From Cyanobacteriota bacterium (lineage in GTDB: Bacteria; Cyanobacteriota; Cyanobacteriia; Thermostichales; Thermostichaceae), in contig JANRIL010000044.1 in assembly GCA_033764955.1 (NCBI GenBank), positions 1 to 64,000 on the forward strand: 64,000 nucleotides of DNA, written 5' to 3'. The notes beneath the pieces were generated by a model. It did no database searches and was not told the DNA's origin. It worked only from the letters and a program-made list of their open reading frames with translations. The stretch's first letter is position 1; every line of letters starts with the position of its first letter. A program made the translations under genes and the position numbers. This document shows, piece after piece, positions 15,311-19,741 of the stretch.

Positions 15311-15425
15311 TCTGCTTCGCCATTGGTGTTAACAGGGGTGGTGAAGGCAACAATTTTTACGATTAACCCTAAAAGTCTGTGTCATAATATCAACTAATAT
15401 TTCCTTTCTGAGAGACGCTCCCCCT

Positions 15426-15629
15426 ATGGCTATTTCTCGCAACCGCAGCCGCGCCAGTTCTGAAGGCAATCCTCAAAAATTTATAGATATGGCCAGTGAA
15501 TTGTTTGGATCCCGTTCCTCCCAGGGAAAAGGCAAAACGGTCGCGGATCGTTCCTCCTATGCTTCTGCCGGAAATCCTAAGCAATTTCTAGATATGGCTA
15601 GTGAATTGCGCCGCCCCACCCAGTATTAA
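15426..15629 (+). CDS. 67-aa protein with two GNPxxFxDMASEL repeats (candidate phycobilisome-core-binding peptide)
   Basis: In-frame internal duplication 105 bp apart with codon-level divergence; TGnCATAAT at 15380-15388; hairpin at about 15660-15683. Confidence 0.75.
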   Translation: MAISRNRSRASSEGNPQKFIDMASELFGSRSSQGKGKTVADRSSYASAGNPKQFLDMASELRRPTQY

Positions 15630-15712
15630 TCAAATTCTGTGCATTGAAAATCCTGTGAAGGGCTAGTTGTGATGGCTAGTCCCTGGACAACTCCCACTGC
15701 TTCCCTTCACCC

Positions 15713-16015
15713 ATGCCGCACTTTCCCCCCTCTCCCCCCTCCCCTTCCGATCCATCCGGATCCCTGACACTTTTGCCGCCTTCTCAATATAAAACCTGTC
15801 GTATTCGCGTGCCCGACCAAGAGGGGTCCTTGGCTGCGATTCAAGCTAATGGTGAGTTTTACAGCTTTTTTCGGGTGGTCAACAATTGGGCAGAAGCAGA
15901 ACGGCTGGGATCCCGCCTTCAGAAGGCAGGGGATCGCCTTCAGATTACCCAGTTGCCCAAAGGACTAGCCATTTGGATTTGGGAGTCAGAGGCGATCGCC
16001 AAAAAATCACGATGA
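15713..16015 (+). CDS. Conserved-looking cyanobacterial hypothetical protein
   Basis: QYKTCRIRVPD...LAAI...FYSFFR...AIWIWE pattern. Confidence 0.7.
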   Translation: MPHFPPSPPSPSDPSGSLTLLPPSQYKTCRIRVPDQEGSLAAIQANGEFYSFFRVVNNWAEAERLGSRLQKAGDRLQITQLPKGLAIWIWESEAIAKKSR

Positions 16016-16291: not shown

Positions 16292-19200
16292 ATGCACCCA
16301 CAAGAGCAGGATACCTGGCTGGGTAAAACTATTGGCGACGATCAGCGATATTTACTAGATGCCCTTCTAGGACAGGGCGGCATGGGTCGAGTTTTCAAAG
16401 CGATCGATCAACGTCTTTCCACACCAGAAAAGCTAGTTTATTGTGCGGTTAAATTTATTTTGGTAGATCTTGGTTCCGATGCGGGTGTAAAGTTGCGCTT
16501 TCAACGGGAAATGCAAACCTGTGCCCTATTGCGTCACCCCTATATTGTGGAAGCTCTAGATTGTGGGGTGATCCCCATGATGGTGGCAAGCCAGCGCAAA
16601 GAATTTCCCTTTTTGGTGATGGAATTGGTGGATGGTTCAACACTGAGCCAGGTATTGAAGCAAGAACGCAGACTGGATCCGAGACGAGCCGTTAAGATTG
16701 CCCGACAGGTGACTCAAGCATTACAAGCGGTGCATAAAGGAGTCATCTTAGATGGCAAGATCATGCGATTTATCCACCGCGATCTGAAGCCTGCTAATGT
16801 GTTTTTATTACACCCGCAAACCCCTCAAGAAACGGTTAAATTGGGTGACTTTGGCCTTGTAAAAGCCATCGGAGAATCGGGGGATCAAAACCTGACCCGC
16901 ACGGGCACATTTGCCGGATCCCCTGAATATTGTTCACCGGAACAATTTGAAGAATTTAAGGATGTAGACGCTCGCGCTGATATTTATAGCTTAGGCTGTA
17001 TTCTCTATCGCATGGTGAGTGGAACCAATCTCTTTAACCTGCCAGGAAAACTGAGTTTTTCCGAGTGGGTGACGGCTCATTACGAACACCCTGTGGCTCC
17101 TTTTCGTCCCGAACTTGGGATCCCAGAGGCTCTACAAGCGGTGATTTTTCGCTGTTTAGAAAAGGATCCTGAACAACGTTATGCCTCAGCACAAGCACTG
17201 GATCAGGCTTTAGCTGTGATTGCTCCCACCCTAACGGCGGCAACCTCTCCTGCTCCCCGCACTTTTGCCGGGGATCCCTCCCTCAATCTCACTTCACTGC
17301 CGACTCAAACGGCCCCAGCTTTGGATGAAATTGGCGAGATGTTAAATCGCTACTATCAATCCCGCAGCCTAACCGTACAAATTAAGCAGCAGGGTTCAGA
17401 GTTAGGTATTTTAATTAACCGACCGGACGAGGATCCGCTAGATTATCCCACCCTCACGACAGAGATTAGCCAGCACCTCGCCACCCTCAATTTAGAGCAT
17501 ATTGAGAAGGTAAAGCTGTTCAGCCGTCCACAAGGACGACATCAACCGGATTGGCAAACTCAGATTTCCTTAAATGCACTACATCCATCATCCACCCTTC
17601 CCCAACCGCGAGCTTCTGATCCGGAGTCACTCACCTCAAAATCATCACAAACTCTGGAGTCAGCTACTGATAAAGATAGTTTTAAGTTATCTGATTATTG
17701 TTTTGTGAGAAATCGCCTTTTGTTGACTACTTCACTTCCTGATCCAGAGGCAGAAGTGGGGCAAGCGATTCGCTTTTTTCATGAACTGTCCTTAGCTGAT
17801 CAAAAAATAACGCTAGAAGCATTGACCCATTTCTTTAAGAATTTACACCAACATAAACCTGAAGCTGAGAGCTCCTATCGTCTTCATTTGAGTTTGTTGT
17901 TACAGCAGTGGTTAGAAGGTTTGGAAAAGCTCAACGAGCGGCAACTGCAATCCGTGGCAATCTGGCTGAGCCGCTATTGCTTGGATCCTGAAAAAGTTTT
18001 ACCACGAGTGACGGCCAGCTTTTTAGCGGCCACTGAGGCGGCTGAGCTGGCAAAGCAGGATCCCAAACTTGTGGGTCGCAAGTCTCAACATCCTCAAAAG
18101 CTCAAACCAGAGAAAGTAATTTACTATGCTCGCTCCCATTGGATTATATTTATCTGGCCAACTCTGCTGGCTTGCCTACAACTTTTAGTTGCTTATCTGG
18201 AGTTGAATTTAACCCCCGTGGTTTTGTTGGCTTGGCTAGATGTGATGCTTAGCCCAACATTTTTGGCTTTATTTGTTATCTTGCCAATTCTTCTCTATCG
18301 AGCTATTGGATCCGTTTTCAAGTTGATTGCTCTGCTAGACCCAGTAAAGTGGTTAAGGACTTATCCCATAGCTATTGTCAGCACACTTGTCGTGATATTT
18401 TTAGGATTTTTGCCTGCTTTTTCAGTCCCCCCCATGTGGGTTTGGCCAATTATTTTGATCCTGATTTTTGTGGCATTTATTTTGCAATTTTATCAATCAT
18501 CTTGTGCGTATAACAGATCCATTATGGCTTTAACCGACCAGGGAAGAATCTTAATTAAATCTGGGGAAATCACCCCTCAAGATCTAATCAACCCTCAATT
18601 AGAATCCTTCCGAGCTGATGAAATTACTGAGATCAAAATCTCTCAGGGATCCTGGCAAAAATTGGCTGATTTTGGTTCTGTTCGTATTATGGCCGAAATG
18701 CGAAGTAGCCTCACTTTGTATGCAGTGGCGAATCCCCAGCAATTCAAATTAACCTATCAAAAGCAAATTGCCAAACTCCGCCAAGAGAAACAGAATTTAC
18801 AGATTTCCCAAACCATACAACGGGATCCCTGGATTAATCGGGAAATTGGTGTTAGCAATCGCTACCGTCTAGATTCCTTGATTGGTACGGGAGGCATGGG
18901 AAAAGTCTATAAGGCGTTCGATCAGGAATTGTATTTAACCGTTGCTGTCAAGTTTATGATGATTGATGGGCAACGGGATCCCGAAAGTCTAGGACGATTT
19001 GATCGAGAGATGAAAGCTTCCATCTATCTGCAAAACGATCGGGTGGTCAAAATACTTAACTCTGGGTTGATGACTCATCCTGAAACGGGTCAGGGATCCC
19101 TACCTTTTTTAGTGATGGAGTATATGGCAGCTCCAACCCTAGCCCAAGTTTTACAGCAACAGCCTAAATTTCCTGTGGCTCGCACCCTACATTTAATCAA

Positions 19201-19741
19201 TGAGATGGCTTTGGCTTTGCAGACACTTCACCAGGGAGTTAATTTTCAAGGGAAGCACTTTACGTTTGTCCATCGGGATCTGAAACCTGCCAATATCTTT
19301 TTACTCTCCACTTCTGAAGAAAAAGAATCTATCAAGTTAGCTGATTTTGGGCTTGTTAAGATTCAGGGATCCCGCCAATTGGAAGATAACCCCGACGATC
19401 AAGGACGATTTATGGGAACTGCTCGCTATGCTGCCCCTGAACAATGTCAAGGGCGTGAAGAGATCGATGGGCGGGCAGATATCTATAGTTTGGGGGTGAT
19501 CTTTTATGAAATGCTTTCGGGTACTAACCCGTTTGGGCTGACCTCTCAAGCAAATGCGACACAATATCTCTTTTCTCATTTGCAAAAACAGCCAATTCCC
19601 TTTCCCACTTATCTGAAAATCCCAGCGTCGGTTACCGCCATCGTGATGCGTTGTCTGAAAAAAAATCCACAAGAGCGATATAGCAGCGGCTCTCAACTGA
19701 GTGCTGATTTGCAAACCTGTCTCACCAACTTGGGCGGCTAA
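16292..19741 (+). CDS. Membrane protein with two Hanks-type Ser/Thr kinase domains and a central TM plus bacterial PH-like region
   Basis: Both ends have GxGGMG, AVK, HRDLKPAN, DFG, (S/A)PEQ and DIYSLG; about 4-5 hydrophobic helices in the middle. Confidence 0.92.
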   Translation: MHPQEQDTWLGKTIGDDQRYLLDALLGQGGMGRVFKAIDQRLSTPEKLVYCAVKFILVDLGSDAGVKLRFQREMQTCALLRHPYIVEALDCGVIPMMVASQRKEFPFLVMELVDGSTLSQVLKQERRLDPRRAVKIARQVTQALQAVHKGVILDGKIMRFIHRDLKPANVFLLHPQTPQETVKLGDFGLVKAIGESGDQNLTRTGTFAGSPEYCSPEQFEEFKDVDARADIYSLGCILYRMVSGTNLFNLPGKLSFSEWVTAHYEHPVAPFRPELGIPEALQAVIFRCLEKDPEQRYASAQALDQALAVIAPTLTAATSPAPRTFAGDPSLNLTSLPTQTAPALDEIGEMLNRYYQSRSLTVQIKQQGSELGILINRPDEDPLDYPTLTTEISQHLATLNLEHIEKVKLFSRPQGRHQPDWQTQISLNALHPSSTLPQPRASDPESLTSKSSQTLESATDKDSFKLSDYCFVRNRLLLTTSLPDPEAEVGQAIRFFHELSLADQKITLEALTHFFKNLHQHKPEAESSYRLHLSLLLQQWLEGLEKLNERQLQSVAIWLSRYCLDPEKVLPRVTASFLAATEAAELAKQDPKLVGRKSQHPQKLKPEKVIYYARSHWIIFIWPTLLACLQLLVAYLELNLTPVVLLAWLDVMLSPTFLALFVILPILLYRAIGSVFKLIALLDPVKWLRTYPIAIVSTLVVIFLGFLPAFSVPPMWVWPIILILIFVAFILQFYQSSCAYNRSIMALTDQGRILIKSGEITPQDLINPQLESFRADEITEIKISQGSWQKLADFGSVRIMAEMRSSLTLYAVANPQQFKLTYQKQIAKLRQEKQNLQISQTIQRDPWINREIGVSNRYRLDSLIGTGGMGKVYKAFDQELYLTVAVKFMMIDGQRDPESLGRFDREMKASIYLQNDRVVKILNSGLMTHPETGQGSLPFLVMEYMAAPTLAQVLQQQPKFPVARTLHLINEMALALQTLHQGVNFQGKHFTFVHRDLKPANIFLLSTSEEKESIKLADFGLVKIQGSRQLEDNPDDQGRFMGTARYAAPEQCQGREEIDGRADIYSLGVIFYEMLSGTNPFGLTSQANATQYLFSHLQKQPIPFPTYLKIPASVTAIVMRCLKKNPQERYSSGSQLSADLQTCLTNLGG

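Follow-up and report, generated by a model that had tools for sequence, protein, structure and literature searches.

A free-standing 67-residue protein with two CpcG-type docking motifs, a candidate ligand of the phycobilisome core in Thermostichus-type cyanobacteria

Introduction

In the 64,000-nucleotide stretch of cyanobacterial DNA analysed here (the window), one small gene encodes a basic protein of 67 aa that holds two copies of the docking motif known from the rod-core linker CpcG and hardly anything besides, and this protein is a stand-alone tandem form, itself new, of that known motif. On a comparison of sequences it is somewhat favoured that the protein would bind the phycobilisome core by lodging its two helices of CpcG type in a pair of allophycocyanin grooves. 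The wider proposal, in which the protein would consist of docking helices only, would be the first case of a multivalent ligand of allophycocyanin grooves that stands alone, and would tune or array the antenna in an undescribed way, is offered as a distinctly doubtful one.

The FxxM(A) helix has been described as the allophycocyanin-docking part of CpcG, ApcG, ApcI/LcpA and Lpp2, as far as the available parts of the sources go, and in the available part of the LcpA paper it is named the HIWA motif (helix interacting with APC) and reported in CpcG, ApcG, LcpA and Lpp2. In excerpts of the ApcG and ApcI preprints, the conserved Phe of the FxxM motif "interdigitates with ApcA", and the FxxMA helices described in these partial sources all bind allophycocyanin subunits. 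An initial annotation of this DNA had stated that the FxxM docking motif is also described for ApcG, and the ApcG and ApcI preprints and the LcpA paper, in the same excerpts, agree. The small non-classical linkers ApcG (2021-22) and ApcI/LcpA (2024-25), with one FxxMA helix each, have changed the view of phycobilisome attachment and regulation.

A small gene conserved in one cyanobacterial family

The open reading frame (Table 1) is a genuine gene, and selection on it is purifying. In a six-frame search, all 22 further genomes of the GTDB family to which the window belongs yielded homologues (E-values 1e-23 to 3e-12; identity 45-68%), all of them keeping both motifs and free of internal stops, which gives the gene the conservation in related genomes that the initial annotation had asked for. 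Start, frame and length class are kept in 23/23 family genomes, and among six Thermostichus-type homologues all 15 pairs have a dN/dS of 0.04-0.23. A chance ORF lying over a DNA repeat might be suspected where a reading frame is short and without an annotated family, but this has a negligible probability here, being already refuted by the conservation pattern and by the low dN/dS; the sequence is also called in public records, where the Thermostichus-type homologues are labelled "hypothetical protein". The two motif copies that had been claimed for the ORF are present, and the repeat can be seen in the DNA itself, where 46 nt (15458-15503 and 15563-15608) are 83% identical, in frame and 105 nt apart. 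The copies differ at the codon level, as was also claimed: among the ten positions of the 14-residue unit with the same amino acid in both, the codon differs at two and is the same at eight.

Table 1. Features of the 67-aa gene and of related proteins; G000 is the window's genome and G192 a genome of a distant cyanobacterial family
Feature	Position	Strand	Length or sequence	Basis and remarks
Candidate extended -10	15380..15388	+	TGTCATAAT (TGn + CATAAT)	about 38 nt before the ATG
Conserved block, presumed 5' UTR	15398..15416	+	ATTTCnTTTCTGAGA	6/7 aligned: window and five Thermostichus-type regions, not L004
Coding sequence, basic protein	15426..15629	+	67 aa	ORF, ATG start, stop codon included
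Motif copy 1, CpcG-type FxxMA helix	15465..15503	+	G14-L26, GNPQKFIDMASEL	motif position; AF2 helix; independent CpcG-helix HMM, 8.6 bits
Connector, conserved	15522..15548	+	Q33-D41, QGKGKTVAD	alignment; AF2 coil
Motif copy 2, CpcG-type FxxMA helix	15570..15608	+	G49-L61, GNPKQFLDMASEL, then RR	motif position; AF2 helix; 11.9 bits
P0011	G000:C27:64064-64459		132 aa	basic N-terminus, middle stretch and C-terminal helix, by sequence
P0012	G000:C44:154041-154376		112 aa	hydrophobic N-terminus; homologues in 12/101 genomes
Single-PF00427-domain linker without C-terminal docking helix	G000:C39:20618-21070 (L013:1378-1971)	-	176-197 aa	relatives L040-L042
G192 single-motif protein	L095:961-1320 (G192:C49)	-	119 aa	23.4 bits against the small-protein motif HMM

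Beyond the six-frame search, a family-profile search found the protein in 23/23 genomes of the phycobilisome-bearing GTDB family (the window's counted), in 0/7 of the sister family and in 1/371 other genomes of the class; by record titles and names, the largest genus of the family is Thermostichus / hot-spring Synechococcus. The sole match outside the family, in G192, is an acidic protein with a single motif, the C-terminal GNPEDFLEMAKEI, and judging from that motif the docking helix may have gone unrecognised in this protein too; a PDB search with it returned nothing relevant. Among 1.84 billion cluster representatives, HMMER retrieved only nine proteins at E <= 0.001, all of which were found in cyanobacteria save a dubious one of 631 aa. 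Seven of the matches are 67-72 aa long, the others being a 51-aa fragment, a 104-aa protein (P0003), which has three motif copies, and the 631-aa protein (P0010). The last of these is a proline-rich repeat protein with AGNPG[AT]FTD[IM] at least five times, and as the weakest match (E 5e-4) it is probably a chance likeness. No longer fused relative of the tandem-motif protein was found among the 1.84 billion representatives, and a word-based homologue search gave no match beyond the 67-aa protein itself.

Family databases gave the protein no name. A Pfam scan at E <= 10 returned no family and two chance matches only, an NCBIfam scan returned no family, and the Protein Atlas gave no usable feature match, and its structure matches are meaningless for a query model of low confidence. 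Two candidate identities were set aside on the Pfam scan at E <= 10: NblA, the small two-helix protein of phycobilisome degradation, for which there was no match, and a stress-repeat protein, which had no Pfam support. Neither a description of the protein nor a phycobilisome proteome that includes it was found in the literature; the available part of a 2026 review makes no mention of a 67-aa tandem-motif protein, and the available part of a 2023 inventory of Thermostichus phycobilisome genes gives apcC, apcE, cpcC, cpcD and cpcG as the only linker genes.

Of the two regulatory elements claimed by the initial annotation, the extended -10 and a downstream hairpin, the first was recovered and the second was not. 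The -10 element is present, and T15380, G15381, A15384, A15387 and T15388 are invariant in 7/7 upstream regions from three genera; its sequence would suit a promoter, and a simple sigma-70 scan, which needs a -35, returned 0 sites, no -35 being found. For the conserved block between this element and the ATG, which is shared across genera, an Rfam search gave nothing near threshold. Downstream, a terminator scan found 0 sites, and the fold of 15620-15720 (z -0.67) was equalled by 44 of 200 shuffles. All 24 listed metatranscriptome runs, taken from hot springs or mats and belonging to 19 studies, contain the locus of a Thermostichus-type homologue, as assembled contigs that are not proof of transcription. 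These contigs span the locus in 4/4 runs, telling no strand, ends or level, and they break within the gene near L008:1532-1606, where strain variants diverge.

Likeness of the two motifs to the CpcG docking helix

Both copies conform to the consensus G-N-P-x-x-F-x-D-M-A-S-E-L. An AF2 model built from a 14-sequence alignment places helices at residues 16-33 and 51-62, on both motifs, with coil elsewhere and no strand, so that the FxxMA signature, F-x-D-M-A in both copies, falls within a short predicted helix; confidence in this monomer model is low (mean pLDDT 64.5, pTM 0.25). In both copies F, M/A and L stand at i, i+3/4 and i+7, forming a hydrophobic stripe as in the CpcG helices. The CpcG motif given in the initial annotation, A-G-[DN]-P-x-x-F-L-x-M-A, is indeed what CpcG/LRC1 chains carry, reading AG[DN]PxNFLxMA at residues 211-233. 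A set of 14 CpcGs from ten other families gives G-[DSI]-[PV]-x-x-[FY]-x-x-[MLV]-A-x-x-[ILVM], and the CpcG of family relatives reads PGDPENFLNMARML.

An HMM made only from the docking helices of the 14 non-family CpcGs (10 genomes) was run against the 48,087 six-frame ORFs of >=40 aa in the window's genome. The 67-aa ORF ranked first (E 1.7e-4, 23.0 bits, with 8.6 and 11.9 bits for the two copies), and the next ORF had E 0.1; with the database size kept equal, E was <= 0.0053 for 11 of the 14 family members and 0.44-1.9 for the other three. When the family profile was compared with family CpcG C-termini by hhalign, an alignment of 18 columns was obtained (E 5.8e-5, probability 65.6%), and BLASTP of motif copy 2 against the CpcG docking helix gave 7/13 identities at E 0.005. 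The alignment to CpcG C-termini that had been proposed as a check therefore finds a detectable likeness, with the forward HMM genome-wide and with hhalign. Against 177,635 distinct PDB sequences, the family profile had only two matches at E <= 10, LRC1 (8wql) and CpcG (7sc7), neither significant alone (E 1.5 and 1.6), and in both the aligned part is exactly the C-terminal docking helix (residues 214-233, KAGDPANFLAMAKQV, and residues 211-228, TAGNPMNFLGMARSI, respectively). On the side of the 67-aa protein, motif copy 2 is what aligns in the PDB chains and in the hhalign comparison.

The same comparisons bear on whether the likeness could be convergent or fortuitous, the protein being then an unrelated small, basic, disordered one (for example a stress, nucleic-acid-binding or ribosome-associated protein) whose helices bind another partner. 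This reading is possible, on the unlikely side. It draws on the shortness of the similarity, on a reverse test in which an HMM of 28 small-protein units scored the family CpcG helices at 7.5-8.4 bits, at noise level beside the best genome noise of 9.3 bits, on the lack of any lead from Pfam, NCBIfam or the Atlas, on antenna genes that show no synteny to the 67-aa gene, and on the position of the most conserved residues (QGxGK), which lie outside the motif and for which no counterpart was found in CpcG. Set against these points are the first rank of the 67-aa ORF in the forward search, the coincidence of the only two PDB matches, both rod-core linkers, at the docking helix, the F/Y, M, A, L stripe, which is seen in 14/14 CpcG helices and kept by both copies, and a distribution limited to cyanobacteria (nine clusters in 1.84 billion representatives, one dubious). 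As judged from the sequences, the link to the CpcG docking helix is real, but it rests on a short motif, the likeness spanning about 11-18 columns.

A conserved connector of fixed length

The stretch between the two motifs had been described as a basic flexible linker, and this description stands only in part: the connector is coil in the AF2 model, but it contains the protein's most conserved residues and is free of gaps. Residues A23, L26, Q33, G34, G36, K37, G49, P51 and A58 are invariant in the 14-sequence alignment, and G14, R30, D41, N50, F54, M57 and L61 come close to it. All 14 aligned sequences run from one motif to the other without a gap, and the spacing from F to F is 35 residues in 7/7 sequences examined. 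Because QGxGK is invariant, gaps are absent and the F-to-F spacing is constant, the connector is seen to carry a conserved motif of its own (QGxGK..D) and to have a fixed length. The protein as a whole counts 12 K+R and 6 D+E. A basic character is typical of linker polypeptides.

Antenna genes and genomic neighbourhood

The genes around the 67-aa gene have no relation to the antenna, and most of them are not conserved. A FAD oxidoreductase (by Pfam) adjoins it in the window and in one other genus, the neighbours at Thermostichus-type loci are an ABC permease, APS kinase and IleRS, and at the loci examined no linkage to phycobilisome genes was found. Directly downstream in the window lies an ORF of 100 aa (15713-16015, +) whose start is rich in proline and which matched nothing in Pfam, followed by one of 1149 aa (16292-19741, +) whose two ends are Ser/Thr kinase-like and whose middle is hydrophobic, as read from the translation.

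The antenna set of the window's genome is ordinary, with apcAB-apcC, apcD/F-type genes, an apcE that has three REP domains, and cpcBA-cpcC. This assembly, which is 89% complete, yielded no CpcG orthologue; CpcG is present in 22/22 other family genomes. The genome has three CpcD-domain matches and three Thermostichus-type relatives that were checked have four, the additional one lying within about 2 kb of cpcG in those relatives, and the missing cpcG is probably an assembly gap. In a complete relative genome (G019), two apcE-like genes were observed (C1:1817331-1819088 and 1852665-1854422, open frames of 952 and 905 aa), both carrying three REP domains.

A linker with a single PF00427 domain and without a C-terminal docking helix is kept in the window's genome and in 4/5 relatives checked, scoring 78 bits against an NCBIfam CpcG cut-off of 420. 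Its presence is what would speak for two further ideas, that the 67-aa helix docks elsewhere, for example on phycocyanin discs, or that it acts in trans as a tail of the PF00427-only linker. Either is improbable, since one relative (G007) has a homologue of the 67-aa protein but PF00427 matches only in ApcE, CpcC and CpcG, and since the FxxMA helices described in the partial sources cited above all bind allophycocyanin subunits. A split rod-core linker, composed of the PF00427-only protein and the 67-aa peptide, was likewise dropped as a candidate, G007 having the peptide and no such linker being found there.

Two further proteins with a terminal FxxMARDL helix, P0011 and P0012, are encoded in the window's genome (Table 1), and neither had a match in the PDB, Pfam or NCBIfam. 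Of 101 cyanobacterial genomes sampled, 67 have a homologue of P0011; the available part of the ApcI preprint gives homologues in 64%, its Table S1 listing 377 genomes, and P0011 is like ApcI/LcpA in sequence layout and in distribution. By their sequences, P0011 is a candidate ApcI-like protein and P0012 a candidate ApcG-like one, and the tandem protein comes on top of these single-helix FxxMARDL proteins. The two also bear on the idea that the 67-aa protein is simply an orthologue of ApcG or ApcI/LcpA that has diverged in this family; with those proteins it has in common a small size, a basic character and an FxxMA helix. That idea is very improbable: the protein has neither the N-terminal photosystem-binding region nor the middle beta region, the same genome already contains P0011 and P0012 with their FxxMARDL ends, and the motif of the 67-aa protein has the CpcG-typical G-[DN]-P cap, which P0011 and P0012 do not.

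A proposed role at the phycobilisome core

In the favoured reading, core binding by two docking helices, a small, basic and mostly disordered protein would present two amphipathic helices that copy the docking helix of CpcG, ApcG, ApcI/LcpA, Lpp2 and CpcJ. On each helix the face formed by Phe, Met, Ala and Leu would lie in the central groove of one ApcA subunit, and one molecule could fill two neighbouring grooves at once, because the helices keep a constant distance of 35 residues and a conserved QGxGK stands between them. This constant spacing, the conservation of the connector and the relative with three copies would together speak for multivalent binding at a defined geometry, and on the phycobilisome core the protein would then serve as a bivalent clamp or cap. 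ApcA binding, bivalency and any physiological effect are what we infer here. As to what such a clamp might do, we lean slightly towards a structural auxiliary core linker, which would fill or staple grooves unused by rods, over a competitor that displaces CpcG. The initial annotation had suggested that such a peptide might cap vacant rod sites, compete with CpcG or cross-link cores.

A protein consisting of two FxxMA helices alone would be a minimal bivalent probe of allophycocyanin grooves. If the multivalent reading is true, having two sites (or three, as in one relative) could let the protein prevail over CpcG, with its single helix, and so release rods, or could let it bridge the grooves of adjacent discs or of adjacent cores. 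If binding is true, the protein would bear on core stabilisation or rod release in hot-spring Thermostichus-type cyanobacteria and on the evolution of docking helices, which occur as the CpcJ tandem, the CpcG tail and a free peptide, and it might be a ready-made peptide tool for the manipulation of antenna size. As to its origin, the tandem protein may be a free-living remnant of a CpcJ-type tandem docking linker of Gloeobacteria. CpcJ-bearing cyanobacteria and the lineage of the window are both early-branching.

Comparison with known linkers

The initial annotation had allowed for the protein being an already described linker, and by layout it differs from CpcG, ApcG and ApcI, being set apart from the latter two by their descriptions. 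With CpcG/LRC1 it shares the signature G-[DN]-P-x-x-[FY]-[LIM]-x-M-A-x-x-[LIV] in a short predicted helix. It can be ruled out as a CpcG itself, since the PF00427 (PBS_linker_poly) domain is absent, and it has no match to the NCBIfam CpcG model. It also carries two copies of the docking helix where CpcG has one, and the residues that follow MA are S-E-L-R-R, as opposed to R-x-[IL]-N-P in CpcG.

Like the 67-aa protein, ApcG (Sll1873) and ApcI/LcpA (Sll1911/A0913) are small, lie outside the classical linker families and, according to the available parts of their descriptions, bind the core through a C-terminal FxxM(A) helix. The same descriptions give each of them one helix and an N-terminal part that binds photosystem II, whereas the 67-aa protein has two helices and nothing else. 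The layout of ApcI/LcpA (in about 120-130 aa, a disordered N-terminus, beta strands in the middle and one helix at the C-terminus) is not that of the 67-aa protein, and the layout of ApcG, compared by description (a conserved N-terminal domain, a positive middle and a single C-terminal PBS-binding helix), differs as well; no ApcG chain was among the PDB matches of the family profile at E <= 10.

Gloeobacterial linkers offer a parallel to the tandem arrangement. A PDB search with the C-terminal tail of one family CpcG also matched such linkers, among them Glr2806 of Gloeobacter (9k9w), with KPGDFANFLDMARG near its N-terminus, and CpcJ of Anthocerotibacter (8iml chain 3), with two tandem helices, FLDMAREL ... 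FLNMAKDL; the family profile of the 67-aa protein did not reach CpcJ in the PDB at E <= 10. Because CpcJ holds these two helices, tandem docking helices already exist inside a large linker, and in the available part of the source the inter-domain linker is described as attaching CpcJ to the core cylinders. The inter-domain linker has its FxxMA helices in tandem, as the 67-aa protein does, but in CpcJ they lie between two PF00427 domains of a protein of 531-729 aa, about 21 residues apart from F to F, whereas the 67-aa tandem stands alone, without PF00427, with 35 residues from F to F and with a QGxGK connector.
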